A stretch of 64,000 nucleotides of DNA, from NCBI GenBank assembly GCA_029259355.1, contig JAPDIZ010000003.1, positions 147,710 through 211,709 on the forward strand. Reading direction: 5' to 3'. This DNA comes from Candidatus Bathyarchaeota archaeon (GTDB lineage: Archaea > Thermoproteota > Bathyarchaeia > JAPDIZ01). How positions within the stretch are numbered: the stretch's first letter is position 1; every line of letters begins with the position of its first letter. Under the pieces are notes generated by a model, which was not told where the DNA came from, ran no database searches, and was given only the letters and a program-made list of their open reading frames with translations. Made by a program: the position numbers and the translations under genes. Positions 3,120 to 64,000 of this stretch are shown piece after piece.

Positions 3120-3812
3120 ATGTACAATGAAGAGGAGAACGTAGATATTGTTGTAACTCAACTAATGAATGTTCTCAACTCTTGTGAATTGATTAGCGAA
3201 TGGGAGTTAATAGTTGTAGATGATGGAAGTGTTGACAACACACTTCAAGCTGTGAAAAAGTATGCAAAAGAAGAAGCTCGAATAAGAGTCTTCAGACATT
3301 TCACTAACCTTGGGCTGGGTAAAGCATTAGAAACAGGTTTTAAACAAGCTTCGAAGGAGATAGTAGTTACAATAGATGCGGATTTATCGTATGATCCCAA
3401 AGACATCCCAAAGCTGATTCTTCCTCTGATCCAAGAACCCTATGTAGACATCGTAGTTGGTTCGCCCTATCTAGGAAGAGGTTTGGTTAAAAACGTGCAA
3501 ACATACAGAATAATCCTCAGCAAATTCGTTAACTATTTATATAGGTGGATCACTAGATCATCGCTAACCTGCTATACAAGCATCTTCAGAGCTTATAGAG
3601 CGAACGTCGTTAAAGATTTGAGAATAAAGTCTCGAAGATTTGAGGCACAACCCGAAATTCTCCTTAAGCTAATCCAAAGGGGTTGTAAAGTTAAAGAAAT
3701 TCCTGTTGTCCTAAGGAGTAGGGAAAAAGGAAGGTCGAAAGTAGTATTACCACGTGAGGTAGCTCTACATATCAAGTTATTGGTAGCATTTATCACCAAA
3801 AAAATTAGATGA
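3120..3812 (+). CDS. GT2 glycosyltransferase, dolichyl/polyprenyl-phosphate sugar synthase-like (DPM1/GtrB-like); the 5' end is probably frameshifted
   Basis: Motifs seen: PMYNEEENV, VVDDGSVDNT, TIDADLSYDP. The reading frame stays open upstream to 3072 and encodes KTTVSIIVP, the normal first beta-strand of GT2, but has no ATG/GTG/TTG there. A GTG at 3073 in another frame reads MKQPRKRK. A 1-nt indel around the A-run 3093-3096 would join the two. Confidence 0.85.
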   Translation: MYNEEENVDIVVTQLMNVLNSCELISEWELIVVDDGSVDNTLQAVKKYAKEEARIRVFRHFTNLGLGKALETGFKQASKEIVVTIDADLSYDPKDIPKLILPLIQEPYVDIVVGSPYLGRGLVKNVQTYRIILSKFVNYLYRWITRSSLTCYTSIFRAYRANVVKDLRIKSRRFEAQPEILLKLIQRGCKVKEIPVVLRSREKGRSKVVLPREVALHIKLLVAFITKKIR

Positions 3813-8052: not shown

Positions 8053-9783
8053 CTAACCTAGGTTTTTAACAATCACTTCGAGGCCAAGCGGTGCCACTAC
8101 GTGTTCGATAGCAATTGCTGCAACACAGCTTCTTGCAGCTGCTTCAGACGCTGGGTTATAAAGAGAAAACAGCAGATGAGTGAAAATTATTGCAGAGATT
8201 AGGAGTAGCTTTAGGTTGTTTTCCTCTCTTACGAGAAAAGAGCCTACTATGGCTAGAGAAAAATTGATGACCCCTATAGGATACATAAACCAAGAAATCT
8301 GATGTATGAAATAGTGTGGAGCAAATCTTTTGAAGAAAAGTTGTGTATATCCCACATACGTAGTTGAATGGATAAACATAAAAACCAGAATAAATAGAAA
8401 TCCAATTAAGTAAGAAATTTTTCCGAAAATTTCTTTTGACCATACTCCATCAGCAATTGCTTTTACGGAAGGTAATGAGTAGATTAATATAGCCATAAAC
8501 AACGGGGTAATTGATGTTTCTTTGAAGAAAAAAGCCAACGTAAAGAACAAAGTCGATAAAAAGTAGTATCTATAAACTAAAAACAGTAAGCCTAGCAGCA
8601 GAGGCGCTACAGACCAATGCTCCATCATAAACCAGAAAAACCCCCTAGTGTAGAAGCTTAAGATATACAGTGCTGAGAGAACTCCCACGAAGGAATTGTT
8701 GCTAATTTTTCTAGCTATATAGAATGCGGCAATCACAGAACACGAGCTGATTAAAAAGTATTCTATCTTGATACAAAAAACTGTTTTGCAGAGAGCCCAC
8801 AGGTAAAATAGAATTGACCAATGTATCTGAGACTCCGCTACTGTTGGCCACACAATTTTCCATGCCTCATAAAGACCTATGCCTTCTTTCATACGAATCC
8901 AGATGCTGTAGTAAAGTCTGTCATCACACATGTAAAGATTAGGATCGTTAACAGGTTTCATTGTGAAGTTAAGAAAGAAAAGCCAAGAAATTACAAAAAA
9001 GACAGTTAAGTGATAGCATCGAAGTCTTAGCGTCTTACAGGAAACAAGGTGATTCTCGAGAAACTGATGAAATGACTGAGCAAGATTAGGCTTAATTATA
9101 AGCATTGGAAGAACAACATATGGAATCACGATAGTGGTGCATCTTAGATGATAAAACACTTTCAACATTGCAATAAGAAATATAGGCAATGTTCCTGAGA
9201 TTATTTTAATTAATGTAGATGAAATCAAACATATGGAAAGGACTATTAATGAGAATATAAATAAACGTCTGGCCACAACCCGCAAGTTGGTACTGCAAAA
9301 ATTTTTTACTTTATTTGCAACCAACAGCGTAATCCTTGCAATACCTACTTCCGGAAATACCACATAGACTAGTGTAGTTAGTAAAAAGAGATTAATAGTT
9401 GCAATGATCAAACCACGTAACTCAGTCTGAAAACAGCTGAGAAAATTAGTTGAGTATATATTGGGAAGAAAAAACAAAGTTACACCACTCGGATAACCAA
9501 AAGATGTTATAATTTTATTAATTTCGTCATAAAGATAGGTAGGTGTTGTTGCTATTGCTAGCAGAATCAAAACATAAACTAAAAAAATCGTTCTGAATGC
9601 AAGATACACTGGTGCTTTTTGTACAAGAAGTCGATAAAGCGTTAAGCTGAACAGCATCAGAATACTAACAGCCCAAAAGGGTGTAAATAGGAGGAAGTAA
9701 CTAACAAAAATGGCCGCTATCGTCATAATTTCTTTTCCTTTGTCTCCAATAATTGCGTTTTCGAAGATGACTTTATTTAGCAA
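8053..9783 (-). CDS. Polytopic membrane protein, family A copy 1; function unknown
   Basis: 576 aa, hydrophobic throughout. The conserved C-terminal half carries NDPNLYMCDDRLYY, EGIGLYEAW, CKTVFCIKIEYF, TRGFFWFMMEHW, FFFKETS, FAPHYFIHQISWFMYPIGVINFSLA and SEAAARS. These are shared with 28374, 52100, 59463 and 61269. Confidence 0.85.
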   Translation of the reverse strand: MLNKVIFENAIIGDKGKEIMTIAAIFVSYFLLFTPFWAVSILMLFSLTLYRLLVQKAPVYLAFRTIFLVYVLILLAIATTPTYLYDEINKIITSFGYPSGVTLFFLPNIYSTNFLSCFQTELRGLIIATINLFLLTTLVYVVFPEVGIARITLLVANKVKNFCSTNLRVVARRLFIFSLIVLSICLISSTLIKIISGTLPIFLIAMLKVFYHLRCTTIVIPYVVLPMLIIKPNLAQSFHQFLENHLVSCKTLRLRCYHLTVFFVISWLFFLNFTMKPVNDPNLYMCDDRLYYSIWIRMKEGIGLYEAWKIVWPTVAESQIHWSILFYLWALCKTVFCIKIEYFLISSCSVIAAFYIARKISNNSFVGVLSALYILSFYTRGFFWFMMEHWSVAPLLLGLLFLVYRYYFLSTLFFTLAFFFKETSITPLFMAILIYSLPSVKAIADGVWSKEIFGKISYLIGFLFILVFMFIHSTTYVGYTQLFFKRFAPHYFIHQISWFMYPIGVINFSLAIVGSFLVREENNLKLLLISAIIFTHLLFSLYNPASEAAARSCVAAIAIEHVVAPLGLEVIVKNLG

Positions 9784-18275: not shown

Positions 18276-19028
18276 ATGATTATCAACGGACCTCTACGAA
18301 AAGCTAGGGAAAAGATATCCATCGTAATTCCAGCATATAATGAAGCTATGAATCTAAAAGAACTGATACCCAGCCTTGCTGATGTGCTGAGAGATTTGTC
18401 GATAATAGGGGAGATTATCGTTGTTAATGATGGCAGCAAGGATGAAACAGACGATGTTTGTGAAGAGATTATTAATAAATGGCATGCCTGGGGATATGAT
18501 GACTGTGGTATTAAGTTTAGAGTATTGAGACATGAAAAAAATTTGGGAAAAACACAAGCACTATCAACGGGTTTTTATAGCGCTGAGGGCGATTATTTGT
18601 TCCTTTTTGAAGCCGATATGCAATATAATCCAAGAGACCTCATCAGATTTCTTCCTCTACTCAACATAGGTTATGACATTGTCTGCGGATGGCGCCGCCA
18701 TAGAGCAGATCCCCCGCATAAAATAATATTGTCTAAGGTTCAAAACATTATTCAGCGAATTGTTTTTGGAACAAACATTAATGATCATAATGTAGGATTT
18801 ATAGGATATAGGCGAGAAGTTGCACGTATCCTATTCCATCCTAATTTCATAAAAGAGCTAGGCCTGGGAAGAGCTCATCATAGAACAGTTCTAGCATTAG
18901 CGAGATACTTGGGATTCACGATTGATGAAGTACCAGTAAGGCACTATTCACGTAAATGGGGGAAATCAAAGGTCGAAGGATGTAAGACGATTATAGAAAC
19001 GATTAAAGTATTCATAAATTATATGTAA
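18276..19028 (+). CDS. GT2 glycosyltransferase, polyprenyl-phosphate sugar synthase-like
   Basis: ISIVIPAYNEAMNL, VVNDGSKDET and FEADMQYNP are present. It is a close paralog of 22876..23652, with long identical runs such as GWRRHRADPPH and GFIGYRR. Confidence 0.88.
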   Translation: MIINGPLRKAREKISIVIPAYNEAMNLKELIPSLADVLRDLSIIGEIIVVNDGSKDETDDVCEEIINKWHAWGYDDCGIKFRVLRHEKNLGKTQALSTGFYSAEGDYLFLFEADMQYNPRDLIRFLPLLNIGYDIVCGWRRHRADPPHKIILSKVQNIIQRIVFGTNINDHNVGFIGYRREVARILFHPNFIKELGLGRAHHRTVLALARYLGFTIDEVPVRHYSRKWGKSKVEGCKTIIETIKVFINYM

Positions 19029-21757: not shown

Positions 21758-22879
21758 TTAACCACGCTTCCTAGAAAGCACCCTCCAGCTATTTTTGTTT
21801 CTCCAGCTAACTGAAACTATCTCCAAACCAGCGTTCTTGACCAAACTACACGCTTCATCTTTGGTAAAGTATTGCGCTAATGGGGCGTATAGCAGATCAA
21901 AAACTATGTGTTGCTTATGTCGTAGAGTAAAAGCAGCTATCGATCTGAGGTATTCGCTATTCGGAAGCAGTGCTTTGAAGAAGTCAATGTGAGAAAAACG
22001 TGCGATAATGTCAAGAAACGAAGCTAGGAAAAGCGATAACCAAAGCAATTCTCTAGGAGCTAACCTAGTTGTAATTTTTTTAATATATGGCTCGATGATC
22101 TTTGTCATTAGGACATTGTTTTCAAAACCATATACCCACATGTGGAATAGGCCACCATTTTTCAGAGCACGAACAATTTCCTTGATCGCTTTAGATGGAG
22201 TGGGGATATGATGAATAACCCCTATTGAATATATTAGGTCAAAGACATTCCTAGTTAAAGGAAGAGTGCATAGATCTGCTTGAATTAAGTGTACATTATC
22301 TCTTTCTCCACAAATTTCTTTGGCTACATCGATCGACTGGCTGATATCTACGCCCACAACTTCATCCGCGTAGTGAGCCACTATACACAGGTGTCTGCCC
22401 ATGCCACAACCAGCGTCCATTACTACATTGTCTCTGAAGTCGCTAAGGGTCAGGGGATAAATCCAACTCAAAAACTCTTGAAGATACTCAGGGTGGTATT
22501 CACGGAATTCCATCCACTCGATTCCGAAGTGTTTAATGAGTTTGGCAAGCACATCTTCTTCTACTTTCTCATTGGATATTGAAGGATCGCGCTTAGGAAG
22601 CAACCTAGGTATTCCATTTGTGATGGGGTATACACGACCGCATCCCATGCATTGAAGTAGCCCCTTAGTGACTTCAATTGCCATACACTCTTTGCAATCT
22701 CTTCCCTTTATGGGATTTAGTTGAGCATAGCTACAGATATCCAGATGACGACAAAGCTCTGGCAAGCCCTTCTTGGCATACGAAGAACTTGCATAGATAA
22801 CGGAAGAATTCGTTAAATCGAGATTAAACTTCGAGCCGCATACGGGACATTGAAGAATGTTTAAAAGCCTAAGCTTCAC
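21758..22879 (-). CDS. SAM methyltransferase with an N-terminal Trm112-like zinc-ribbon
   Basis: CPVCGSKF...CMGCGRVYPITNGIPRLL provides four Cys. These are followed by VMDAGCGMGRH, IYSIGVIHHIP and LKNGGLF. The GTG start overlaps the stop of the upstream GT2 gene (GTGA). Confidence 0.82.
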   Translation of the reverse strand: MKLRLLNILQCPVCGSKFNLDLTNSSVIYASSSYAKKGLPELCRHLDICSYAQLNPIKGRDCKECMAIEVTKGLLQCMGCGRVYPITNGIPRLLPKRDPSISNEKVEEDVLAKLIKHFGIEWMEFREYHPEYLQEFLSWIYPLTLSDFRDNVVMDAGCGMGRHLCIVAHYADEVVGVDISQSIDVAKEICGERDNVHLIQADLCTLPLTRNVFDLIYSIGVIHHIPTPSKAIKEIVRALKNGGLFHMWVYGFENNVLMTKIIEPYIKKITTRLAPRELLWLSLFLASFLDIIARFSHIDFFKALLPNSEYLRSIAAFTLRHKQHIVFDLLYAPLAQYFTKDEACSLVKNAGLEIVSVSWRNKNSWRVLSRKRG

Positions 22880-23652
22880 GTTTCATCCTTCCTTAACAAC
22901 CTTGACTTTGACCTATGATAAGATGCCAGAAGTTTTTCCCATTTAAACGTAAACAAGAAATATAGCTTGACAAGAGCTTTAGCAGTTTCTAAGGTAGTTT
23001 TCCATCCACTTATGTATGATTTACCGCTTACGCGAGGATAGTGCCTAACAGAGACTTCATCGATTGTAAAGCCCAAACGTCTAGCAATAGATAGAACCAT
23101 ACGGTGATAACTACGACCCAAACCAATTTCTTCAATAAATTCGGGGTCGAATAGAATTAGCGCAACATCACGTCTGTAACCAATAAATCCAGAGTTATGG
23201 TCGGATAGGTTTGTACCAAACAAGAGTCGCTGAAGCAAGTTTTGCGCCTTTGAGAGGAGTATTCTATGCGGAGGATCTGCACGATGACGTCTCCATCCAC
23301 TAACTATATCATAGCCTATATCCAATAATGGCAGAAACCTGACTATGTCTCGGGGGTCGTATTGAAGGTCTGCTTCGAATAGAAAGCAGTAATCCCCAGA
23401 CGAGGCGTAAATTCCCGAGGAAAATGCCATAGTTTTGCCAAGGTTTCTCTCATGATTAACTACCTTAATGATGTCTTCCCAATTTTTAGCGAAACTTTCA
23501 CAAATCTCTTTGGTGTTATCTGTGCTTCCATCATTTACTAAGATTATCTCGCCATTGATTGAATATCTGTTAAATACTTCAAGAATGTTAGGGACAAGTC
23601 TCTTTAAATTATCAGCTTCGTTGTAGGCAGGAACTATCACTGAAACGCGCAA
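22876..23652 (-). CDS. GT2 glycosyltransferase, polyprenyl-phosphate sugar synthase-like
   Basis: VSVIVPAYNEADNL, LVNDGSTDNT and FEADLQYDP are present. It is a paralog of 18276..19028 in inverted orientation and is the first gene of a GT2 - MTase - AsnB run on the minus strand. Confidence 0.88.
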   Translation of the reverse strand: MRVSVIVPAYNEADNLKRLVPNILEVFNRYSINGEIILVNDGSTDNTKEICESFAKNWEDIIKVVNHERNLGKTMAFSSGIYASSGDYCFLFEADLQYDPRDIVRFLPLLDIGYDIVSGWRRHRADPPHRILLSKAQNLLQRLLFGTNLSDHNSGFIGYRRDVALILFDPEFIEEIGLGRSYHRMVLSIARRLGFTIDEVSVRHYPRVSGKSYISGWKTTLETAKALVKLYFLFTFKWEKLLASYHRSKSRLLRKDET

Positions 23653-28373: not shown

Positions 28374-30155
28374 TTGTCGAATCAAATTTTTTCAAGACAC
28401 ATAGATACCAGAAGCATTAGGAGAAGTACTGCTATCCTTTCTGTAGTAATGATTGCTTTTGGCTACATCCTTCTATTTACGCCCTTCTATACATTTGGTC
28501 TCCTCATACTATTTGGCTTAATATTGTACCATTATTTCTTGCAAAAAATGACGGTATATTCTCTTTTCAGGAAATTTTTTCTAATTTATGTTCTGATTCT
28601 ACTATCTATCGCTACGATTCTCAACAACTTCTATAATGAAATCAATAATGCCATAGTATCTCTTGGTTACACTTCAGATATCACTTATCTTTTCCTCCCC
28701 AACCTATCCTCTACCGGTTTTCTCAGGCTTTTTCCAAAAGAATTACGCATCCTCATCATTTTTTTCATAAATTTGTTTTTATTTTCCGCCATTATTTTTG
28801 TATTCTATCCAAATAGGTTTATCTCCATTAGAAAGGTGAAGTGGACTATAGATGCGGTTAAAATAAGTATTAAGAGAGAATTTATGCAAATCTTAACCAC
28901 ATACCTATTAGTTTTTTCTTCTATATGCTTAGTAGCTCTTACAATTATTAAATTGACTTCGGGCTTAGTGTTGCCTTCATACATCACCTTCCTCTTAAAA
29001 GTAGTTTATTACCTGCGGAATACGACGGTTATTATACCTTATATAGTCCTTCCACTACTCGTGTTAAAACCAAACATCTTCCGAATGTTTCACCAATTTC
29101 TTGATGAAACTATATTATCTTGGAAATCTACAAAGCTAAAGCTTTATCACTTCGTAATTATTCTCATAATTTCTTGGTTCTTTTATCTTAATTTTGCAGT
29201 AACACCTGTTGATAACCCCAATCTCTGTATGTTTGATGATAGATTGTATCATCATATCTGGGTATATATGAGGGAAGGAGTTAATTTTTATGAGGCATGG
29301 AAAGTATTCTTTCCATCGAATACAGAAGCCTATATGCACTGGTCTCTTCTTTTCTATCTATGGGCAGTTTGTAAAACAGTACCTTGCGTCAAAGTAGAGT
29401 ATTTTCTTCTCAGTACAGTAGCTGTGGTTAGTTCGTTTTACTTAACAAAAAAGCTTACTGAGAATTCGTTTATAGGAGTGCTTTCGATGCTATACATTAT
29501 GTGCTTTTACTCGAGAGGGTTTTTCTGGTTTATGTTGGATCAGTGGGCTGCTGTTCCTCTATTGATAGGCTTGATGTTTTTAGCTTATGGAAAACACTCG
29601 CTATCGGCTACATTTTTTGTTTTGGCGTTTTTCTTTAAAGAAACTACTGTTATTCCACTGTTTGTAGCGACGCTGCTTTACTCCATACCTTCTGTGAAGA
29701 GGATAGCTTTAGGAGATAGATCTAGGGAAAGCCTTGAGAGAACATCGTATTTAATTGGATTTTTATTGATTCTGGTATTTATGATGATACATTCAGCAAC
29801 TTACACCGGGTCAGAGTATGCGCAAAAATTCCTCAAAATATTTGCTCCACACTATTTTGTGCACCAACTTTCTTGGTTTATGTATCCAGTAGGAATCATC
29901 AACTTCTCTCTAGCCATCACTGGTGTTTTCCTCATTAAAGACGATAATAGGAAGAAACTCTTTCTAATATTGGCAATAATCTCTACTCATTTATTATTCT
30001 TTGCATACAATAAACCATCTGAGGGCTCCGCAAGAAACTGTGTAGCAGCCATTGTAATTGAATACATACTGGCGCCCATAGGGCTGAAAATAACAGAGGA
30101 AAGAGTGGCTGAGCTAGTCCTAGGCAATTCTCAGATAAAAGTAGCAAAGAGATGA
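28374..30155 (+). CDS. Polytopic membrane protein, family A copy 2; function unknown
   Basis: 593 aa with a TTG start. Motifs: DNPNLCMFDDRLYHHIW, EGVNFYEAW, CKTVPCVKVEYF, SRGFFWFMLDQW, FFFKETT, FAPHYFVHQLSWFMYPVGIINFSLA, SEGSARN. Confidence 0.85.
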   Translation: MSNQIFSRHIDTRSIRRSTAILSVVMIAFGYILLFTPFYTFGLLILFGLILYHYFLQKMTVYSLFRKFFLIYVLILLSIATILNNFYNEINNAIVSLGYTSDITYLFLPNLSSTGFLRLFPKELRILIIFFINLFLFSAIIFVFYPNRFISIRKVKWTIDAVKISIKREFMQILTTYLLVFSSICLVALTIIKLTSGLVLPSYITFLLKVVYYLRNTTVIIPYIVLPLLVLKPNIFRMFHQFLDETILSWKSTKLKLYHFVIILIISWFFYLNFAVTPVDNPNLCMFDDRLYHHIWVYMREGVNFYEAWKVFFPSNTEAYMHWSLLFYLWAVCKTVPCVKVEYFLLSTVAVVSSFYLTKKLTENSFIGVLSMLYIMCFYSRGFFWFMLDQWAAVPLLIGLMFLAYGKHSLSATFFVLAFFFKETTVIPLFVATLLYSIPSVKRIALGDRSRESLERTSYLIGFLLILVFMMIHSATYTGSEYAQKFLKIFAPHYFVHQLSWFMYPVGIINFSLAITGVFLIKDDNRKKLFLILAIISTHLLFFAYNKPSEGSARNCVAAIVIEYILAPIGLKITEERVAELVLGNSQIKVAKR

Positions 30156-32889: not shown

Positions 32890-34380
32890 ATGTTGCTTGG
32901 ATCGACCATAGCAAGACTATTTCAAATTATTTACGTAATCTTTGTTGTACGCCTTCTTGGTCCACAAGACTACGGTCTTCTCGCGCTTGTACTCGCCGTA
33001 ACTGGAGTTATTACTTCAGTAATAGATCCTCACGTAGGTCTCGCTACCGTTAAGCTTTACACAGAGAAGCAAGACCAACACTTTCTATACATCGCCCTCA
33101 TTTTCTATATTTGTGTAGGAGTAGCTTCAGCAGTTGTAATCCTTCTCTTTGGTGATATTGTAATTGCTAACCTAGCTGGGTCGCAAGCTAGCGAACGTCG
33201 TTTTGACCTTGTATTGATCTTTATTAGTCTTTTGATAATATTGATAACTACTAATAGTTTGTATTCAACACTCTTCGAATCCTTCTTTTTATTCAGCTAT
33301 GAGGCGCTTATGATAGCTACTAGACGCATACTCATCTGTATACTTGCAGTAGTAGCTCTGTTTTGGGGATACGGGCTCTTAGGGGTATTTGCCGCAATAA
33401 TCGCCGGGTACTTGATTCCCCTTATAATCCTTATGCCAATAGCTTACGAAATACTAAAAGCGCAAATTAAGACAAGGATTCGTGTAGGCATTCTGTGGAG
33501 CAAATTTGTCGAAGTTCTACAGTTTGGCATTCTTGCCTATATCGCTACCGTCATGTATCAATTTTACACATCATCCGACGTTATCTTAGTTGGATACTTT
33601 AGATCGCTCTGGGATGTTGGACAATATAGCGCAGCACTTCGCTTAGTTAATGTTGTTTTGCTTATCCCATCAGCGTTTATCTCGGTATTAATGCCAGTTG
33701 TGTCGAGGATTTCTGGAGAAAAAACTCTAAGTGAGCGCGAGATATCATCCATAGTAGGACTTACGCTTAAGTATACAATGATCCTAGCAGTACCCTTTTG
33801 CATGGTTTTATCTGCCAATTCTTTCCTAGTGATAACAAGCCTTTTTGGGATTAGTTATCAATATTCGACGGAAGTGCTTCCCCTATTATCAATTTTTGCA
33901 ATATTATTAGCATCTTACATCGTTTTCGACTCTACTTTGGTGGGGTTGGGTAAGCTCATCGAGAGGATATTAGTTTCGCTGACCATGTTAATATGTGGAC
34001 TGATTCTGCACATAGTTCTAATACCTACGATAGGCATATACGGGGCAGCGCTATCTATGCTTCTCTCAGCTGGAATTGGTACTCTCTCTGCTATGTTCGC
34101 TCTTCGCTTAACACCCTCAAATCTCCTGGCTGCTAACGTTGCCAAATTCGCGATAGCCTTAACTCCCTTAGCCCTTTCATCGCTAATAGCAACTACTCTC
34201 ATGAACAGCTTAGCAGGTATTTGTTTGTTAACGATCTCTTTAGCAGGCTATGCTTTGCTGCTTTTGCTTCTAGGAGTAATCGATGAAAAAGATCTCGATA
34301 ACTTCTCAAAAGTATCCATGCTTTCCCCAATTGCTAAATTTGGGAAGAGCGTTCGGAAGAAAGTTTTGAAAAGAGGCTGA
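32890..34380 (+). CDS. wzx: Wzx-like polysaccharide/oligosaccharide flippase (MOP superfamily); the 5' end is probably frameshifted
   Basis: About 12-14 TM segments, with FVVRLLGPQDYGLLALVLAV near the N-terminus. The frame is open upstream (..SGKALATGSFAMLLGST..) with no start codon. An ATG at 32801 lies one frame off, across a G5 run at 32810-32814. Adding one G gives MNNGGKSAIRQQIDSQEWSSGKALATGSFAMLLG. Confidence 0.82.
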   Translation: MLLGSTIARLFQIIYVIFVVRLLGPQDYGLLALVLAVTGVITSVIDPHVGLATVKLYTEKQDQHFLYIALIFYICVGVASAVVILLFGDIVIANLAGSQASERRFDLVLIFISLLIILITTNSLYSTLFESFFLFSYEALMIATRRILICILAVVALFWGYGLLGVFAAIIAGYLIPLIILMPIAYEILKAQIKTRIRVGILWSKFVEVLQFGILAYIATVMYQFYTSSDVILVGYFRSLWDVGQYSAALRLVNVVLLIPSAFISVLMPVVSRISGEKTLSEREISSIVGLTLKYTMILAVPFCMVLSANSFLVITSLFGISYQYSTEVLPLLSIFAILLASYIVFDSTLVGLGKLIERILVSLTMLICGLILHIVLIPTIGIYGAALSMLLSAGIGTLSAMFALRLTPSNLLAANVAKFAIALTPLALSSLIATTLMNSLAGICLLTISLAGYALLLLLLGVIDEKDLDNFSKVSMLSPIAKFGKSVRKKVLKRG

Positions 34381-52099: not shown

Positions 52100-53851
52100 A
52101 TGGTGATTGAGGTAAAATTTGGTGATTTGTTGCGGGATAAGCCGATTTGGCAGCGATCATTTGAACAAATGCATCAACAAATGCTTTTGTTCATAGTTGC
52201 GGCTATTGGGTATATTCTTTTGCTTACTACGTATTGGTTAATTGGATTTGCAATAATTTTTTGTTTAGCACTTTCTAGATTCGTTCATTTAAGACTATCA
52301 ACACCTATTATCATCAAAAGGGTTCTCGTGTTAGTTATCTTAATCCTACTTGCTGTTGCGTCGCTACCCTGTTCTTTCTATGGTGAGATTAGCGAATTTG
52401 TTGTAGAGAGTGGTTATACGGTGGGTGTGGCGTTTTTGCTTCTTCCAAATCTTTACTATATTTTTATGGGAATTTTTGGAGAGTTCTCCGATATCGTTGT
52501 CTATGCGATAAATCTTCTGCTCTTTTTTGCACTATTTTCTCTATTGCTTCATGAAGAGGAGAGATGTATCGGTGTTCGAAAGCTATTGAAAATTCACATT
52601 ATGAAGGTTCGTAGGGTAAAAGTTTCTAGAAATGCTTTGAGGTGGTTGTTTCTTCTTTTTTGTATGCTTCCCATTTTCTTAATGTTTCTTAAGCTTTTCT
52701 ATGGTACTCAAGGTTTTTGGCTGTTTTCTGTAGCAGATATGTTGCTACGTAAGCTACGAATCACGACAGTAGTAATACCCTACCTCGTCCTTCCACTTGT
52801 TATCATTTGGCCAAGAATTCTAGAAGTCTCTGACCAATTTCTCAAAAAAGAATTAGCATATATTGGGAAAAGGGTTGTAAAGTGTTACCACTTTATGATT
52901 TTGTTCATAATCCTTTGGTTTCTATTCTTAGATTTGACTCATGTATCGCTTAATGACCCCAACCTATGCATGACCGATGACAGACATTACTTTAGAATAT
53001 GGACTCATATGAGGAGTGGAGCAAGTTTTTACGAAGCGTGGGCGAGGGAAAATCCTGAAAATACTGAGGCTCATATTCACTGGTCAGCTCCCTTTTTCAT
53101 CTGGGCTCTCTGTAAAAACGTGTGGTGTATAAAGCTAGAGTACTTCATACTTGGTGCAGTTTCTCTCATATGCTCTTTCTTCTTCGCAAAAAAGATGACA
53201 GAAAATTATGTTATTGGGATTTTGTCGATGCTTTATTTGCTATGCTTTTACTCAAGAGGGTTCTTTTGGTTTATGTTGGATCACTGGGCTACTGTTCCAG
53301 AAATGCTTGGGCTCGTGTTTATGGTGTTTCAGCAACACGTTTTATCTGCAATCTTCTTGGGAATGTCGTTTTTCTTCAAAGAGAGCTTTATTACAGTAAT
53401 CGCATCCACAGCTGCTGTCTTCGCACTTTGGGCTATCTATCTTCACTTCGTAAAAAGAACAAAGATTTCGCTTGTAGAATACGGATCTTATAGCTTAGCT
53501 TTTCTCGCTGTGATTTCTTTTATAGCATACCACTCTGCAACTTATGCAGGTCCCGTATTCAGCAAGTTCTTTTTTGGAGAGATTCACCTAAACTTTTTGC
53601 TACACCACTTCTGCTACTACATGTATCCAATTGGTCTCGTAAACTTTTTGTTAGCTATTTTGGGAATCCTATCAATATCCGATAGAAAAATACAGGCTGT
53701 TTTGCTGGCAATCATTGTAGTCACTCATCTCTCTTTCTTGCTAATCATACATGGGTGCTCAGATGTTTTAGCAAGAAATGCGGCGCCAGCTGTTTTCGTC
53801 GAGTTCTTATTAGCTCCTCTTGGAATTGCAACGCTGTCATCCAAGTCTTGA
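52100..53851 (+). CDS. Polytopic membrane protein, family A copy 3; function unknown
   Basis: 583 aa with NDPNLCMTDDRHYFRIW, SGASFYEAW, CKNVWCIKLEYF, SRGFFWFMLDHW and FFFKESF. The start codon is uncertain. Confidence 0.83.
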   Translation: MVIEVKFGDLLRDKPIWQRSFEQMHQQMLLFIVAAIGYILLLTTYWLIGFAIIFCLALSRFVHLRLSTPIIIKRVLVLVILILLAVASLPCSFYGEISEFVVESGYTVGVAFLLLPNLYYIFMGIFGEFSDIVVYAINLLLFFALFSLLLHEEERCIGVRKLLKIHIMKVRRVKVSRNALRWLFLLFCMLPIFLMFLKLFYGTQGFWLFSVADMLLRKLRITTVVIPYLVLPLVIIWPRILEVSDQFLKKELAYIGKRVVKCYHFMILFIILWFLFLDLTHVSLNDPNLCMTDDRHYFRIWTHMRSGASFYEAWARENPENTEAHIHWSAPFFIWALCKNVWCIKLEYFILGAVSLICSFFFAKKMTENYVIGILSMLYLLCFYSRGFFWFMLDHWATVPEMLGLVFMVFQQHVLSAIFLGMSFFFKESFITVIASTAAVFALWAIYLHFVKRTKISLVEYGSYSLAFLAVISFIAYHSATYAGPVFSKFFFGEIHLNFLLHHFCYYMYPIGLVNFLLAILGILSISDRKIQAVLLAIIVVTHLSFLLIIHGCSDVLARNAAPAVFVEFLLAPLGIATLSSKS

Positions 53852-56640: not shown

Positions 56641-57018
56641 GCCTAATCACCATGCCTAATTTGGGTTAAAGGAATCGGTTCTAAAAGCCTTATACAATTT
56701 TCTGAGCCTTAGAAGCGAGCCATTGCTTATGAGGTGAAAGAATCTGTTTTCTTAACTACTACCTTCCCTAAGTTTTTTCAGAAGAGTCTTTAGCAAAGAT
56801 TGAGAAAGTTTCATGGTCGTAGTCGACTGATGGCTTGGGAGAAGGCTAATCATGATTCTAATGTGAGGAGCTCTTTTGAAATCGTCTACGACTAATATGA
56901 GGTGATCGTTTTCCACGAAAAGGCCTTAGAGATTAGGGGACTAAAGTCGTTCTTGGTGTGGCGATGAGCTGTCTTGCGCTTTTTCTTCAAAGTTTTTGGC
57001 GCTGTATTCGGTGTTTTG

Positions 57019-57327: not shown

Positions 57328-57362
57328 GTTTGCTCTGGAGAGGAGTGTATCGATGTATGTGC

Positions 57363-57713: not shown

Positions 57714-57908
57714 AAAACTCTATTGCTCTTCTTTCTAGAACTTCGACTTCTCTCCTGTGTTCTGCATCCACCTAAGCGGCACACCCCAGATCTAGCCATA
57801 GGTTTGTGGACGCCCTTACTTAAGAGTGGTTTTGCGTGAGGGAAGTAGAACGCTTCACCACCAACCTATTTAGGGGGATTTTGCTGTTGGGTTTTTAGGT
57901 GCTGTTGA

Positions 57909-59069
57909 TTGCGAATAGCCTTTACAGTACCCTCCTTCTACCCCTTCGTCGGCGGTGTGGAGACATACGTGTTTTCGATTTCTAGGGAGCTCGTTAGCCT
58001 CGGGTGCGATATCGTAGTCTTTTCGCCGAACAGAGTCGCTGGTCAACGGGTTTCGCGCGACCTAGATACTGTTGGTGGCGTTGAGGTTAGGTATGTACAC
58101 GTGCCTATAGAGCTTAGCTATCGTGCGAGGGTTTGGCCTCGCTTAGCTAAGGAGTTGGCGAGAATTGGCTCTGGAGTTGACTTGATACACTGTATAGGCG
58201 ATGGCCACTTCCACTCCTTAGTCTCTCCCCACATCGCTAGCAAGTTGGGCAAGCCTTTGGTCGTTACCACTTACGGACCCCTATACCTCCAGACCGAGTA
58301 CTCAGTTCTTAAGAAGCCGTTTTTCGACTTCTACGACGCCTTTATCGATCCATACGTCTTTAGGAGGGCTTCAGCTGTCTGCATAAGGTTTCCAGAGCTT
58401 AGGGATTGGGCAATTGCTCATGGAGCGCGAAAGAACTCTATCTACTTAACGCCTTCGGGCTTGTCTAAGGAGTTTTTGGAGAAGGTGGATGGAAAGCTCT
58501 TCATGGATAGGTTTGGCCTCGATCCCCCCATTGTCCTCTACGTGGGTAGGCTTACTCCACAAAAAGGCGTCCACTACTTCGTAGCTTCAGCTAAGCAGGT
58601 GGCTTCTGAAATTCCCGACGCTAAGTTCGTGGTGGTCGGTCCCGATCAGGTTGGGTTTAGGCCCTATCTAGAGGCTTTGGCTCAGAAGCTCGGGGTCGAT
58701 AAGAACTTGGTGTTTCTTGACCCCATTAGGGATGCGCTTCTCGAGATGAGCGCCTACGCCGCATGCGATGTTTTTGCGATGTACAGCGCATTTGAGGGCT
58801 TTAGCCAAGCAGTTGTTAAGGCTATGGCTCAGGAGAAGCCTGTGGTGGTTTCTCAGGTAGGGGGGCTTCCCTACGAGGTAAGCTATGGTAGGTGTGGAGT
58901 GGTTGTTCCCTATGGAAGCGCCGAAAAGCTTGGGAAGGCGATTTTGGAGGTTTTGTCTAACCCAGCCTATTTCCGTGACATGGCTAGGAGGGCTCGCGAG
59001 AGAGCGAAGCTGTTTACGTTTGACAAGCTTGCTAGAGACCTCCTCAACGTTTACGAGAAGCTTGTCTAG
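57909..59069 (+). CDS. GT4 glycosyltransferase
   Basis: 386 aa with a TTG start. Motifs: MRIAFTVPSFYPFVGGVETYVF, LYVGRLTPQKGVHYF, YSAFEGFSQAVVKAMAQEKPVVVSQVGGLPYEVSYGRCGVVVP. Confidence 0.88.
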   Translation: MRIAFTVPSFYPFVGGVETYVFSISRELVSLGCDIVVFSPNRVAGQRVSRDLDTVGGVEVRYVHVPIELSYRARVWPRLAKELARIGSGVDLIHCIGDGHFHSLVSPHIASKLGKPLVVTTYGPLYLQTEYSVLKKPFFDFYDAFIDPYVFRRASAVCIRFPELRDWAIAHGARKNSIYLTPSGLSKEFLEKVDGKLFMDRFGLDPPIVLYVGRLTPQKGVHYFVASAKQVASEIPDAKFVVVGPDQVGFRPYLEALAQKLGVDKNLVFLDPIRDALLEMSAYAACDVFAMYSAFEGFSQAVVKAMAQEKPVVVSQVGGLPYEVSYGRCGVVVPYGSAEKLGKAILEVLSNPAYFRDMARRARERAKLFTFDKLARDLLNVYEKLV

Positions 59070-59462: not shown

Positions 59463-61199
59463 GTGTTTGTTCAACGTTTCGAAAGCTTAAGAAGAGAGTC
59501 AGCTTTGTCTGCTGCTGCGCTAAGTAAGTCTCGGAGATTCCACATTTTTTCAGTTGTCTTTGTAGCTTTGGCGTATCTGCTTCTCCTAACGCCATACTGG
59601 ATTTTTGGTCTACTATCTCTCTGCTTTTTTGCAGCGATTTTTGCTGTGAATCGGGTTGTTTTTTGCTGGAGGCTCTTCGCAGTGGTTGTGATATCGCTTC
59701 TCGCTGCATCAACTATGTGGTGTCCGTTGTATGAGGGCATTAGCTTCTTGGTGACTTCATACGGCTACTCGCTTGGTGTGGCCTACTACCTCCTACCAAA
59801 TCTGGGGCTTTTACCCAAGATGCTTGATGAGTTGCTTGATCAGCGCTCATCGACCTTTCTTTACTGGGTCTTAGTTGTTTTCGCAAACTCGATACTGCTC
59901 GTAAGCATGGAGTTGGTATTTTTCTCAGGATATAGAGGTGGATTTAAGAGATTCTTGCAAAAATTTTCTGCTCGTACACATGTTTCGAAGATATTGGGTT
60001 TAGGCTTTATCGTTTTTTCTATAGCTTCAATGGGTTTTGTGTGTGCGATATTGCTTGGTGAAGCCTATGAGGTACTGCGCCCAATACTCTTCTTGTACTA
60101 CCCTCTGAGGATATCGTCCGTCCTAGCCCCCTTTGTCTGCATCCCGCTTTTCTTGGCTTATCCCGATCTCTTGAAGTGGCTTCACGAAGTATTGAACAAA
60201 CCCTTTTTCAGCGTTGGTGGGGGAGGAATTAGGTGCTACCACCTATTCATCTTGTTCTTGGTCTCAAGCTTTTTGGTTCTGGATTTTTCGATCACGGCTC
60301 CCGATGATGTGGAGTTTTGTAGCGTAGATGATAGGCTCTACTATCAGGTTTGGAGAGGTGTAAGAGAGGGCATCGGTTTTTACGCAGTTTGGAAAAGCGC
60401 TTTCCCAGAAAATACCGAGGCTTGTATGCACCACTCTTTGACTTACTCGATGTGGTTTTTATGTGACGAAGTCCGTTGCATCAAGATGGAGTACTTCTTG
60501 GTTTGTTCCCTCGGCTTGTTAGGCGCTTTCTTCTTCGCAAAGCGGATTTCGCAAAACGCGTTTTTGGCTGCATTAGCTGCACTGTATATGCTTAGCTTCT
60601 TTACGACTCGAGTGTTTTGGTTTATGCTCGACTACTGGTCTGCAGCTCCCATGGTTTTGGCTATGGCTTTTCTAGCTCACGATATGCACGTCGTATCCTC
60701 AGCGCTTCTCGTGATCGCTTTCTTTATGAAGGAAACTACTGCTCCTGTTCTCGCAGCTGCTGCGCTGCTGTATTCATTAATTCCTTTGGCGAAGTCGAGG
60801 AGGGGTGTTTTTGACGAAAGATACGCAGCTTATGCGTTGGGGTTGATCGTTGTTCTCTCTTTTGCGGCAATAACCTATGCGTTTTGGATGAGGGTCCAAG
60901 GGATGTTTCTACACGTTTTTCGACCACATCACTTCATTAGGCAAATTGCTTGGTTTATGTACCCAATTGGGTTGGTCAACTTTTTGCTGGCTTTTCCAGG
61001 GATGCTTTCGGTTAGAGATAGGAGGCTTAAGATGCTGCTGTTTTTAGTCGTTGTCGCTACGCACTTGCTCTTTCTTACCTACAACCAGCCTTCTGAAGGA
61101 GCTGCTAGAAACGCGATGGCAGCGATCGCTGTTGAGTACCTAATGGCTCCTCTTGGCATAGGTGCTCTTGCTGAAACAAGAAAAGCTGGTAGACTTTAA
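59463..61199 (+). CDS. Polytopic membrane protein, family A copy 4; function unknown
   Basis: 578 aa with a GTG start. Motifs: PDDVEFCSVDDRLYYQVW, EGIGFYAVW, CDEVRCIKMEYF, TRVFWFMLDYW, FFMKETT, FRPHHFIRQIAWFMYPIGLVNFLLA, SEGAARN. It is G+C-richer than copies 1-3. Confidence 0.85.
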   Translation: MFVQRFESLRRESALSAAALSKSRRFHIFSVVFVALAYLLLLTPYWIFGLLSLCFFAAIFAVNRVVFCWRLFAVVVISLLAASTMWCPLYEGISFLVTSYGYSLGVAYYLLPNLGLLPKMLDELLDQRSSTFLYWVLVVFANSILLVSMELVFFSGYRGGFKRFLQKFSARTHVSKILGLGFIVFSIASMGFVCAILLGEAYEVLRPILFLYYPLRISSVLAPFVCIPLFLAYPDLLKWLHEVLNKPFFSVGGGGIRCYHLFILFLVSSFLVLDFSITAPDDVEFCSVDDRLYYQVWRGVREGIGFYAVWKSAFPENTEACMHHSLTYSMWFLCDEVRCIKMEYFLVCSLGLLGAFFFAKRISQNAFLAALAALYMLSFFTTRVFWFMLDYWSAAPMVLAMAFLAHDMHVVSSALLVIAFFMKETTAPVLAAAALLYSLIPLAKSRRGVFDERYAAYALGLIVVLSFAAITYAFWMRVQGMFLHVFRPHHFIRQIAWFMYPIGLVNFLLAFPGMLSVRDRRLKMLLFLVVVATHLLFLTYNQPSEGAARNAMAAIAVEYLMAPLGIGALAETRKAGRL

Positions 61200-61268
61200 A
61201 TAAGCTCTTTGTTGAGAAAAAGTAGCTAGCGCCTCTCACCGAGGACTGAAGCAGCCAAGAACTCACAA

Positions 61269-63011
61269 GTGGGAGCTATGATATGTGTTTATAAATGCTG
61301 GGAGAAAAGAGGCGCTTTAACAAAACTTTTACTAACTACCTTGGGCTTTCTTTTGATATTGACCAATCTTTGGTTTGTTGGAGTAATCATTCTTTTTGTA
61401 CTCGCAGCCCTCACCTCAAGTTCGCGTAAAGCAAAAGTGGAGGCAGTTGCTTCGATAACAAAAAAATCCGTTCAGCTATTGGTCATCATATTGTTAGCTG
61501 CATCTACCTTGTGGTGTCCGTTGTATCAAAGTATTGTAGATGCTGTTGAGTGCTTGGGATATCAGTCAAAAATTGCGTTCTTTATGCTTCCAAACCTTTC
61601 GCTACTACCTCGATACTCACTGCTCTCTTGGATATACTCGTTCTACCAGTTGTTGGTCATAGTCATAAATGGCGCTATGCTTTTGGTTGCGCTATCGATA
61701 ATCGATGATGAGTTTAGGTCTAGTATTAGAAAGTTTGGACAAAGGCTTTCTCTTAACCTAAATCGTAGAGCAGCCATACGAATCGCATGTATTTTATTGT
61801 TCATTCTCTCAGCGATTTTCTACTTGTTAACGCTGAGGGTTTTGCTTGAAGGAACCTACGAGGGGTTCGAGCCCTTTATCTACATCGCTCACTTAATCAG
61901 ATATTCTTCAGTTGGTATTCCATACGTCATTATTCCGCTCATCGTAGTTAAGCCAGATTTGGTCAAGAAGCTTTCGCTTGCCTTGGAGACGGAGGTTGTT
62001 GAGCAAAATGATTTCAGGATCAAGTGCTACCACTTCCTCATAGTCTTTGTGATTACGAGCTTCTTGCTTGTGAGCTACACAGTTGTTGAGCCGAGAGACC
62101 CAAACATCGTAATGTTTGATGACAAGACATACCACGGTGTTTGGATGTACATCAAAGAAGGTGTTGACTTCTACAAGGCTTGGGAGAAATCCTTTTTTCC
62201 AGATCCCATACCTCACGTACACTATTCTTTAGCCTTTGTCATCTGGATGGTTTGCAAACGTGTAGAGTGTGTCAAGTTCGAGCTTTTTCTTCTCTGCTCA
62301 CTAGCTTTTATCAGCACGTTTTACGCTATACGGCGAATAACTGGAAGCGCTTTTTTGGGGGCACTATCCATGTTCTACGTCTTTAGCTTTTTCTCGATCA
62401 AGATTTTCTGGTTTATGCTTGAGCCATGGGCTGCTCCTCCCGCTATTCTCGGAATCGCTTTCTTGTCCTATGGCCAGTACCTACTCTCTTCGATTATGCT
62501 GACTTTATCCTTCTTCTTTAAGGAGACGATGCTGCCTTTGCTCTTAGTTGCGTCTGTGTTCTATCCGTTTTTACGGATATATTGGGAGGAGAGGCTTCAG
62601 CTGTCTAAGAAGTTCTATAGCGAATACTGCTTTCCTCTCTGCTTGCTCTTAACAGCAGTATTTATCTTGATGCACTCAGCTACCTACTTTAGTGAGCAAA
62701 GAGCGGCGTATTTCTTCGACATGTTTGCACCACACTTGTTCATACATCAAATCTCTTGCTTCATGTTTCCTATTGGATTGGTGAATTTTCTGCTCGCGAT
62801 TCTCGGGCTTGTAACCGCCCTCAGAAGCGATGCGCATAGAGCAACAGTTGCCTTTCTGCTGCTGGCTGTGGTGTTTACTCATTTCTTGTTCATCGTTTGT
62901 ACTGGAGGATGCTCTCTTTCGAGTGCGAGGCATGCAGAAGCTGCTCCCTTAATAGAGTTTATGACAGCTCCGCTAGGGTTGCGGGTTTTTGCGGAAGATG
63001 ATGGAGGGTAA
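61269..63011 (+). CDS. Polytopic membrane protein, family A copy 5; function unknown
   Basis: 580 aa with RDPNIVMFDDKTYHGVW, EGVDFYKAW, CKRVECVKFELF, IKIFWFMLEPW, FFFKETM and FAPHLFIHQISCFMFPIGLVNFLLA. It is in tandem with copy 4, with a 69-nt gap. Confidence 0.85.
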   Translation: MGAMICVYKCWEKRGALTKLLLTTLGFLLILTNLWFVGVIILFVLAALTSSSRKAKVEAVASITKKSVQLLVIILLAASTLWCPLYQSIVDAVECLGYQSKIAFFMLPNLSLLPRYSLLSWIYSFYQLLVIVINGAMLLVALSIIDDEFRSSIRKFGQRLSLNLNRRAAIRIACILLFILSAIFYLLTLRVLLEGTYEGFEPFIYIAHLIRYSSVGIPYVIIPLIVVKPDLVKKLSLALETEVVEQNDFRIKCYHFLIVFVITSFLLVSYTVVEPRDPNIVMFDDKTYHGVWMYIKEGVDFYKAWEKSFFPDPIPHVHYSLAFVIWMVCKRVECVKFELFLLCSLAFISTFYAIRRITGSAFLGALSMFYVFSFFSIKIFWFMLEPWAAPPAILGIAFLSYGQYLLSSIMLTLSFFFKETMLPLLLVASVFYPFLRIYWEERLQLSKKFYSEYCFPLCLLLTAVFILMHSATYFSEQRAAYFFDMFAPHLFIHQISCFMFPIGLVNFLLAILGLVTALRSDAHRATVAFLLLAVVFTHFLFIVCTGGCSLSSARHAEAAPLIEFMTAPLGLRVFAEDDGG

Positions 63012-63016
63012 GCGTA

Positions 63017-63238
63017 ATGGACCCCGCCTACGCGTTATGGATTATTGCCTCAGCTTTGGTCTTCGCAGCTTTCTTCACCCTGCTTTTGAAGAACAATACT
63101 CAACGTGTTTTGGCCGTAATCGCTTACGTCATAATTGTCGCTCACGGGGTTTTCTGCGACAACCTCCCCGCGGTTGTTGCTTCGTCTGTGGTGGGTTCCG
63201 TAACTCCCGTCGTGTTTAGAGTCATGGATCAGCTTTGA
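63017..63238 (+). CDS. Small two-TM membrane protein (hypothetical)
   Basis: 73 aa. The ATG lies 5 nt after the stop of family A copy 5. Two hydrophobic stretches are present: YALWIIASALVFAAFFTLLL and VLAVIAYVIIVAHGVF. It has no recognisable family, and the alternative-frame ORF 62989..63219 is less protein-like. Confidence 0.45.
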   Translation: MDPAYALWIIASALVFAAFFTLLLKNNTQRVLAVIAYVIIVAHGVFCDNLPAVVASSVVGSVTPVVFRVMDQL

Positions 63239-64000
63239 AGTACACTGTCATAGACTTGCTGTTGTATATGAGGTGGGTTTTCTCGAATTCGCATTCATAC
63301 TCCCATGGGTTGATGTAGTAGTAGGGTTTTTCAACGTGTTTCTGAAGCTTTCCGTAGTAGTCTCCTGTCCAAGAATCCATCAGCGATGGGGCTTTGGAGT
63401 TGCAGGGATGAGGAGCTTTCTCCATTAGCCAGTTGGTAGCAACGAGCCCGCTTTCGCTGATGAATGGCAAAAGACCTCCTTGGTATACGTAGGCGTGAGC
63501 CATTAAGCCCGCTGCAGATGTCGCTGTCAGCAGAAAAATCATCGAAACACACTTCACAAGCTTCATCCTCTCTCCGTGGAAGAGGGGATGTGTTAAAGCG
63601 AAGATACCGTAAGCTGATGCGATGCCTAAGGGGATTCCAGCGATTGTAAATAGCCTAGCTACTTGCCCAATATTGGGTACGCCTATTCCAAGTCTTCCGC
63701 TGTAGAAAATTATGAGTGTGCCGATGACGAGGCTTGCGAAAAACACGTCTTCCCTTCTCTTACCTACGTAGATCACTGCCAAGATTGAGAGGGGGAGAAC
63801 TACCTCGTTGTAGACGGCTATGTCGTGTAGAACGGGTGCCCAACCAGTTGTCTCTGGCTTCCATGGAGCGCTTATGTCGAAGGGGTACCAGCCACTTGCA
63901 GCGTGAGCGAAGACCCAGTTTATGATGGGGTAGGACGCGAAAAGTGTCAATAGTATAACAGAGATTAAGACCGCTCGCTTCGCACCAAGCGTAACACCTT
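63222..64000 (-). CDS. Polytopic membrane protein, C-terminal part; the gene starts beyond the right edge
   Basis: The track ORF 63222..63950 begins at an internal TTG. The frame stays open to nt 64000 (..GVTLGAKRAVLISVILLTLFASYP..). Several TM segments are followed by a soluble tail of about 60 aa. Confidence 0.7.
   Translation of the reverse strand, partial: GVTLGAKRAVLISVILLTLFASYPIINWVFAHAASGWYPFDISAPWKPETTGWAPVLHDIAVYNEVVLPLSILAVIYVGKRREDVFFASLVIGTLIIFYSGRLGIGVPNIGQVARLFTIAGIPLGIASAYGIFALTHPLFHGERMKLVKCVSMIFLLTATSAAGLMAHAYVYQGGLLPFISESGLVATNWLMEKAPHPCNSKAPSLMDSWTGDYYGKLQKHVEKPYYYINPWEYECEFEKTHLIYNSKSMTVYFKADP

Follow-up and report, generated by a model that had tools for sequence, protein, structure and literature searches.

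A 64-kb stretch of contig JAPDIZ010000003.1 (positions 147,710 to 211,709), from a Candidatus Bathyarchaeota archaeon and here called the window, was found to encode five paralogs of a polytopic membrane protein, termed Family A, which is best described on the basis of modeled structure as a new and very rare branch of the GT-C(A) glycosyltransferases, nearest to ArnT/PMT_2 and with an atypical N-terminal domain of six transmembrane (TM) helices. These proteins are probably outer-face GT-C(A) enzymes that take sugars from polyprenyl-phosphate donors and decorate a surface glycan. Behind this view stand the homology and rarity of the proteins, their predicted fold and topology, the pattern of conservation, and the neighboring genes; polymerase, transporter, and scaffold readings are less likely. 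The window as a whole is a glycan-biosynthesis island, a setting recognized in a preliminary description made from the nucleotide sequence and now confirmed by its gene content.

The five homologous open reading frames (ORFs) of 576 to 593 aa named in that description were all recovered, with BLASTP E values of 1e-81 to 0 for all pairs and 32 to 52% amino acid identity over nearly full-length alignments. A tblastn search with copy 1 across the 64-kb window found exactly five loci and no sixth copy. The copies, with the two parts of copy 1, are as follows.

59463..61199, plus strand: Family A copy 1, 578 aa; the gene caller agrees on the start
~59463-60197, plus strand: N-terminal six-TM domain of copy 1 (AlphaFold2 model)
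60198-61196, plus strand: GT-C-like module of copy 1 (AlphaFold2 model)
61269..63011, plus strand: Family A copy 2, longest ORF of 580 aa; the public gene call is 550 aa, with a start at ~61359
52100..53851, plus strand: Family A copy 3, 583 aa, flanked by one Family B gene and two PMT_2 genes
28374..30155, plus strand: Family A copy 4, 593 aa, with a Family B gene after it and two divergently oriented PMT_2 genes before it
8053..9783, minus strand: Family A copy 5, longest ORF of 576 aa; the public gene call is 557 aa, with a start at ~9726

Copies 1 and 2 form the tandem pair already described; they lie 69 nt apart, yet they are only 34% identical, and identity to copy 1 is 32 to 36% across the other copies. 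On the related contig L001, copy 1 has an ortholog with 56% identity (P0002) and copy 2 has one with 51% identity (13418-15160). As each tandem copy has its own ortholog there, the tandem duplication is older than the split of these genomes. The closest pair is copies 4 and 5 (52% identity), the latter adjoining a PMT_2 gene (6164-7465). The tandem region had been drawn to position 63238; the last ORF of the family ends at 63011, and the extra span belongs to a separate 73-aa ORF (63017-63238).

Five motifs, DD(R/K).Y, WFM(L/M)(D/E).W, F(F/M)KE(S/T), C....C.K.E, and H.S, are present in all five copies, so most of the motif list first drawn up stands, except that copy 1 lacks the PN..M portion of the first motif and copy 3 is the most deviant in F.PH.F..Q and SE..AR. 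The proposed contrast between a divergent N-terminus and a conserved C-terminus is also partly right: identity among paralogs is 23 to 30% over residues 1 to 245 (44% for the closest pair) and 36 to 41% from residue 246 to the end (58% for the closest pair). By sequence comparison, however, the N-terminal ~245 aa are a homologous, separate six-TM domain in their own right, and their divergence relative to the C-terminus is only a matter of degree. Invariant residues of this region are Y90, I93, G101-Y102, L111-P112-N113, R216, P223, and P228, and it has a conserved external loop, Y..I.......GY........LPN.

A survey of distribution and copy number, proposed when the family was first noticed, places Family A among extremely rare, previously uncurated sequence families. 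The profile of the five copies had no match in Pfam, NCBIfam, or PDB sequences. No Pfam hit was obtained for the five paralogs at an E value of ≤10, and no PMT_2 or PMT hit was obtained for 20 superfamily members at an E value of ≤1; at the gathering score the proteins fall outside Pfam PMT_2 (PF13231) and PMT (PF02366), to which they are linked by remote profile-profile similarity only. Profile searches of PDB sequences with both the five-copy and the superfamily alignments gave no real match. NCBIfam NF046093 (AZOBR_p60025 family cell surface glycopolymer formation protein) was matched below threshold by 2 of the 20 members, both distant (best E value, 5.7e-5; best score, 22 bits against a cutoff of 150), and by none of the window proteins.

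When 1.84 billion representative proteins were scanned exhaustively with HMMER, 21 hits were obtained at an E value of ≤1e-3. The set comprised the window's own copies, three full-length relatives (P0002, P0006, and P0007), two fragments (P0008, 98 aa; P0016, 340 aa), one protein consisting of the C-terminal module alone (P0009, 369 aa), and about 12 distant proteins of 285 to 480 aa that match only profile positions ~260 to 570. Three module-only relatives of ~410 to 450 aa (P0011, P0020, and P0021) have a cytoplasmic zinc-ribbon at the N-terminus, ahead of the first TM helix, which shows that the region N-terminal to the GT-C module varies across the superfamily. No stand-alone homolog of the N-terminal domain was among the hits. 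Ten clusters were looked up, the largest having five members or fewer. No relative was found in the GTDB species-representative genomes by pattern search and tblastn, and a scan of JGI metagenomes returned a single locus with a relative (L006). A word-indexed homolog search, which is ineffective for low-complexity TM proteins and was replaced by HMMER, had returned only the query, P0002, and one weak hit.

The AlphaFold2 model of full-length copy 1, built from a 20-sequence alignment, has a predicted local distance difference test score (pLDDT) of 86.8 and a predicted template modeling score (pTM) of 0.89; the model of the C-terminal module alone (residues 246 to 578) has values of 87.0 and 0.88. 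With the module as the query, the Foldseek matches in the PDB at a probability of ≥0.96 were exclusively proteins of GT-C fold. Best was ArnT (5f15, query-normalized TM-score [TMq] of 0.59 and E value of 2.4e-3; 5ezm, TMq of 0.57), and the matches included PglB (0.53 to 0.59), EmbB (0.57), AglB (0.52), PIGU (8imx_U, 0.52), DPY19 (0.49), and GPI-MT-I (0.47), with PimE at a lower probability (9dm5; TMq of 0.49, TMt of 0.44, probability of 0.77). Other matches, to G protein-coupled receptors, transporters, and further helical proteins, had TM-scores of ≤0.2, and the full-length model gave the same set. These comparisons rest on the 50 matches listed per model, and among those listed for either model there was no WaaL, Wzy, RodA, or MOP structure. 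From these predictions, the assignment of a GT-C(A) fold to the conserved module is solid. Together with the lack of a curated family, the restriction of the high-probability matches to GT-C proteins agrees with the original suggestion of a new, repeatedly duplicated GT-C-like transferase family.

Profile-profile comparison and modeled fold both indicate that ArnT/PMT_2 is the nearest branch. In hhalign, the alignment of the window's PMT_2 proteins was matched by the superfamily profile with a probability of 84% (E value, 8e-6) and by the C-terminal module with a probability of 90% (E value, 1.5e-6). The link spans helices 2 to 6 and sets the FFMKE of Family A against the WTKE of PMT_2. Four other polytopic proteins from the same loci, used as controls, reached a probability of at most 6%, which argues that the link is not an artifact of TM composition. 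It had been stated that the motif set could not be matched to AglB/STT3, ArnT/PMT_2, Wzy, or Wzx. Pfam, NCBIfam, and PDB sequences indeed gave no match, the WWD motif is in none of the five copies, and none of the five paralogs matches Pfam Wzy/O-antigen ligase (Wzy_C) or Wzx (MOP); for ArnT/PMT_2, however, the statement does not hold at the level of profiles and fold.

In the full-length model, the N-terminal domain has six TM helices within residues ~24 to 232, followed by a short cytoplasmic helix and a hairpin. The GT-C module (~330 aa) has ten TM helices: one at residues 258 to 276, a 60-residue loop, and nine more, which brings the predicted total to 16. External loop 1, after the helix at 258 to 276, contains helices at residues 288 to 301 and 306 to 313, and the model ends on a TM helix with no C-terminal soluble domain. 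In the definition of the GT-C(A) class, a variable helical module comes after a conserved module of seven helices, and external loop 1 has two helices, the first of which bears the catalytic acid (PMC13503287). Family A has the polytopic core in its predicted structure (TMq of 0.57 to 0.59 to ArnT, PglB, and EmbB) and, in the model, a two-helix loop 1 with an acid on the first helix, a putative counterpart of ArnT D55 and PglB D56. The model and the positive-inside rule were used together to set the sides of the loops. The density of lysine plus arginine is 0.16 to 0.26 in inner loops and 0.05 to 0.08 in outer loops in each of the nine full-length members, a bias of three- to fourfold that predicts the active-site loops to be extracytoplasmic. 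The DD loop, whose placement the preliminary description had left to topology prediction, thus falls on the predicted outer side, at the first loop-1 helix, where the catalytic base of GT-C(A) enzymes sits. Three segments of copy 1 make up the candidate active site.

60327..60332, plus strand: codons of D289-D290, proposed as the catalytic acid/base, at the N-terminal end of the first loop-1 helix
60618..60638, plus strand: codons of W386-W392 (WFMLDYW), at the outer end of the module's fourth helix
60723..60737, plus strand: codons of F421-T425 (FMKET), with K/R423-E424 at an outer turn between helices

D289-D290 is invariant in the five paralogs, and D289 is kept in 16 of the 17 superfamily members that cover the column. 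D/E390 and W392 are each present in all 20 members, as is K/R423, while E424 is found in 18 of 20; K/R423-E424, aligned by hhalign with the TKE of the window's PMT_2 proteins, is a candidate phosphate-binding pair. Down to ~17% identity, the near-universal charged residues of the 20 members are D289, K341, D/E390, K/R423, E424, and R549; Y307, W331, and M388 also persist, and every one of these positions maps to the predicted outer face. The five paralogs share 73 invariant residues, of which the outer loops contain 30 and the inner loops 2. A GT-C active site for a lipid-phosphate sugar is expected to combine a loop-1 acid, another acid at the following outer turn, and several basic residues; this is the composition seen in Family A, and by analogy we infer that the outer-face charged set may bind such a donor.

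This conservation bears on two other readings. It is highly improbable that Family A proteins transport or flip lipid-linked sugars or other substrates instead of acting as transferases. They are polytopic, their N-terminal six-TM domain is without a known relative, and the genes of the island account only in part for its need of a flippase; against this, transporter structures matched at a TM-score of ≤0.2 with a probability of <0.4, conservation is concentrated on one membrane face and does not follow a translocation path, no Pfam transporter signal was found, and the GT-C fold of the C-terminal module refutes the idea. The check by structure prediction and Foldseek proposed at the outset accordingly returned GT-C proteins as its high-probability matches, with no transporter fold among them. 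It is also quite unlikely that Family A proteins have the GT-C fold without being catalytic and act as a scaffold, as a subunit that binds lipid or glycan, or as a chaperone of the neighboring PMT_2 enzymes, comparable to PIGU in the glycosylphosphatidylinositol transamidase. PIGU is among the structural matches, and the additional N-terminal domain could mediate interactions. PMT_2 genes also accompany Family A: members of a ~430-aa subfamily do so in the window, L003, and L006, and others in L001. Distant module-only relatives, however, are found with a GtrB gene and have no PMT_2 partners, and the retention of D289, D/E390, and K/R423-E424 to ~17% identity, all facing outward, is the pattern of an active site.

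Apart from the structural and profile-profile links, Family A shares with ArnT (GT83) and PMT_2 an acidic residue in external loop 1, ~30 to 34 residues before helix 2, and an association with small GT2 synthases of the ArnC, GtrB, and DPMS (dolichyl-phosphate-mannose synthase) type. It differs in lacking a PMT_2 HMM match, in having DD(R/K).Y in loop 1 in place of the PDE of PMT_2, and in its shorter module, which has no periplasmic domain and is preceded by the six-TM domain. PimE and other GT87 (DUF2029) proteins are likewise compact GT-C enzymes with little soluble domain and a loop-1 Asp followed by an aromatic-rich amphipathic helix, but Pfam gives no GT87 hit, ArnT and PglB are closer in structure, and the motif set is another. 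With the GT66 enzymes PglB, AglB, and STT3, Family A has in common the TM core fold (TMq of 0.52 to 0.59) and two expected acidic residues, the catalytic Asp of external loop 1 and another in the external loop after it; it is far smaller than these proteins and has neither their C-terminal soluble domain nor WWDxG.

The place of the GT66 enzymes among the best structural matches raises the question of whether Family A proteins could instead work en bloc as an oligosaccharyltransferase, ligase, or polymerase, with a protein, a lipid, or a growing polymer receiving a preassembled oligosaccharide that had been carried by a polyprenyl-(di)phosphate. The island encodes a Wzx-like flippase, a type that typically handles lipid-linked oligosaccharides, and a polymerase was the alternative named in the preliminary description. 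We consider this unlikely. The proteins stop right after the last TM helix, the best match, ArnT, is a monosaccharide transferase, relatives adjoin DPMS and GtrB genes, whose products make monosaccharide donors, and five paralogs beside many PMT_2 genes are harder to reconcile with one ligase or polymerase step than with side-chain decoration. The polymerase alternative in particular is not borne out, as no Wzy, WaaL, or RodA-type structure was among the listed Foldseek matches.

Gene neighborhoods are consistent with the preferred reading of Family A as outer-face transferases that use polyprenyl-phosphate sugars. On contigs long enough to judge, the full-length relatives all lie within glycan clusters with GT4, GT2, or PMT_2 genes. 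P0007 (contig L002) is directly followed by a GT2 resembling Dol-P-Man synthase, as is its ortholog in L006, where the genes overlap; the best solved relative of these two GT2 proteins is the Pyrococcus Dol-P-Man synthase 5mlz (E values, 2e-40 and 2e-42). A distant module-only relative, P0022, has a clear GtrB ortholog (5ekp; E value, 7e-85) 30 nt downstream. Outer-face glycosylation systems classically have a GT-C gene paired with the gene of a polyprenyl-phosphate sugar synthase, as in Gtr and Arn. Outer-face systems with such a pairing include GT136 (PMC11127046) and archaeal AglD/AglR/AglS (PMC3871713). In the window, candidates for donor supply and export were found at the following positions.

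3120..3812, plus strand: small GT2, Pfam Glycos_transf_2; best solved relatives Dol-P-Man synthase 5mlz (E value, 1e-20) and ArnC
18276..19028, plus strand: small GT2; best solved relatives ArnC, GtrB, and DPMS (E values, 1e-17 to 6e-15)
22876..23652, minus strand: small GT2; best solved relatives GtrB, ArnC, and DPMS (E values, 5e-20 to 8e-15)
32890..34380, plus strand: Wzx/AglR-like MOP-family protein, Pfam Polysacc_synt_3 (E value, 1e-21) and Polysacc_synt

By sequence similarity, the three GT2 genes are candidate polyprenyl-phosphate sugar synthases and the MOP-family protein is a candidate flippase for lipid-linked sugars; a fourth small GT2 (47503) is an ordinary GT2. With the DPMS-like and GtrB genes beside relatives, the three GT2 genes point indirectly, by analogy, to the use of polyprenyl-phosphate donors. 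Family A loci resemble three-component systems (GtrA/GtrB/GtrX, GT136, and AglD/AglR/AglS), in which a GT2 synthase, a flippase, and a GT-C transferase from one glycan locus decorate a glycan after export; in the Haloferax pathway, AglD is the synthase, AglR the flippase, and AglS the outer-face transferase (PMC3871713). They differ in that the transferase is of another, uncurated family, that very many outer-face GT-C genes share one island, and that no GtrA-like small flippase was evident among the small intergenic ORFs, which were inspected by eye only, with no Pfam scan.

Catalysis, donor type, and acceptor are inferred from this evidence, and the pathway might run as follows. Small cytoplasmic GT2 enzymes of the DPMS/GtrB/ArnC type would load a sugar onto polyprenyl (dolichyl) phosphate, and the lipid-linked sugar would be flipped to the outer leaflet, the Wzx-like protein of the island being a candidate carrier. 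The Family A module would bind the lipid-linked sugar at the outer face, where D289, aided by D/E390, would activate an acceptor hydroxyl, while K/R423, K341, and R549 would hold the phosphate leaving group. The acceptor of the sugar would be a glycan, glycoprotein, or glycolipid of the cell surface. The paralogs, all five of them old, may differ in donor, acceptor, or linkage, and together with the PMT_2-type proteins they could give a combinatorial outer-face decoration.

Several points weigh against this interpretation. Family A has no sequence-level membership in any curated glycosyltransferase family (Pfam, NCBIfam, or PDB sequences), and the best Foldseek E value is only 2.4e-3, TM-scores of 0.5 to 0.6 meaning fold-level likeness only. 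Structure and topology are both predicted, from a shallow 20-sequence alignment. The hhalign comparison left the DD loop unaligned to the PDE loop of PMT_2, and the structural matches include PIGU, a GT-C-fold protein that is not catalytic. The conserved module of GT-C(A) enzymes is N-terminal, whereas that of Family A starts at about residue 258, behind the six-TM domain. Finally, no DPMS-like GT2 directly adjoins a Family A gene in the window.

Comparison with related contigs shows that Family A genes are divergent or replaced where flanking genes are conserved. Upstream of copy 1 are two conserved elements.

57019-57713, minus strand: HEPN/MNT toxin-antitoxin pair
57909-59069: GT4

In blastn comparisons of window positions 56978-59068 with L001 (8973-9842) and L003 (7560-9632), the toxin-antitoxin pair plus GT4 (56993-59068) was 92% identical to L003 at the nucleotide level and the pair (56978-57854) was 91% identical to L001. 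PMT_2 genes had 69 to 73% identity to L003, and Family A genes had 66 to 71% identity to L001 and L003 or were undetectable. Copy 1 has no ortholog in L003; what lies there between the conserved GT4 and a conserved gene for a 656-aa protein is a 73-aa ORF together with another Family A member (P0006). From this difference in content and the mosaic divergence, Family A occupies a hypervariable slot, which suggests a serotype-like diversification of the surface glycan. Such diversification has been discussed for the S-layer glycans of Haloferax (PMC5867893).

The 73-aa ORF has a counterpart next to the tandem pair.

63017..63238, plus strand: 73-aa membrane protein, conserved, starting 6 nt past the stop of copy 2

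It has the motif ...VIIVAHG(V/L)FCDNLPAV..., and homologs are located at 9751-9972 in L003/L004 (44% amino acid identity) and at 17580-17798 in L001; identity to the window copy is 41 to 44%, and that between L003 and L001 is 78%. In all three related contigs it adjoins Family A or the 656-aa polytopic gene, and it may be an accessory subunit. The polytopic protein of 656 to 658 aa, without a Pfam hit, is a conserved neighbor of Family A in related contigs (L001, 15337-17313; L003, 11730-13700). In the window, ORF 63222-63950 (minus strand) is 63% identical to its C-terminal third and seems to be shortened by an in-frame stop <50 nt from the window end. Possible explanations are a frameshift, a pseudogene, and an edge effect.

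A more far-reaching proposal, to which we give little credence, is that the N-terminal domain, with the 73-aa protein and the 656-aa neighbor, may flip or hand over the lipid-linked sugar or select the acceptor, roles of the kind that separate proteins fill in other GT-C systems. Family A would then combine carrier handling and sugar transfer in one fused enzyme. The locus would be an outer-face machine for glycan editing of a kind not seen before, exchanged among close relatives like a serotype cassette. The domain has a conserved external loop and no detectable relative, and it might be more than a passive anchor. An internal duplication (N-terminal domain against C-terminal module) and a relationship of the N-terminal domain to PMT_2 were both ruled out (hhalign probability, <1%).

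The rest of the island encodes GT4 and GT2 transferases, a UDP-GlcNAc 2-epimerase, a DegT aminotransferase, an acetyltransferase, methyltransferases, a sulfatase, a phosphodiesterase, and an AsnB-type amidotransferase, whose best matches are in DPANN and other archaea (≤47% identity over the full length). No tRNA genes were found in the window. Two further groups of membrane protein genes accompany Family A.

1604-2935, 6164-7465, 13441-14808, 14793-16352, 24324-25616, 25830-27254, 53867-55138, and 55252-56640: PMT_2-type ORFs (Pfam PMT_2 match or resemblance)
30212-31912 and 50251-52011, plus strand: Family B, 566 and 586 aa, 32% identity (E value, 2e-74)

Seven of the PMT_2-type ORFs match Pfam PMT_2, two of them (1604-2935 and 53867-55138) below the Pfam cutoff; ORF 13441-14808 has no Pfam hit and is grouped with them only by its likeness to 1604-2935. 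They include paralog groups of three (~430 aa), two (~470 aa), and two (~450 aa) members, and the ~430-aa group, which accompanies Family A in L006 too, has a YGG(F/Y)P...PDE.W loop. The window thus contains up to 13 GT-C-type genes in 64 kb, namely, 5 of Family A and at least seven, probably eight, of PMT_2 type. Family A copies adjoin PMT_2 genes and, in two places, Family B as well. Family B proteins have a soluble N-terminal region of ~150 aa, a polytopic C-terminal part, and the motif LEIPL.LHCTK...LGPFGGGT.PRL; they have no Pfam hit, and in profile comparison they resemble neither PMT_2 nor Family A. Large proteins at 34388-36346 (plus strand, 652 aa) and 42327-44174 (minus strand, 615 aa), the second polytopic, have no Pfam match. 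Family B and the 615-aa, 652-aa, and 658-aa proteins were ruled out as relatives of Family A or PMT_2 (hhalign probability, ≤6%); they are the controls for TM composition mentioned above.

If the preferred reading is correct, Family A would add a new sequence family to the GT-C glycosyltransferases, with no new mechanistic class. GT-C families are still being founded from single characterized members, as in the case of GT136 (PMC11127046). Of practical value are an annotation handle for a family otherwise labeled hypothetical and a short list of residues for mutation. For the organism, the extraordinary density of outer-face transferases in one island would mean that an uncultured, probably archaeal lineage invests heavily in outer-face glycosylation.

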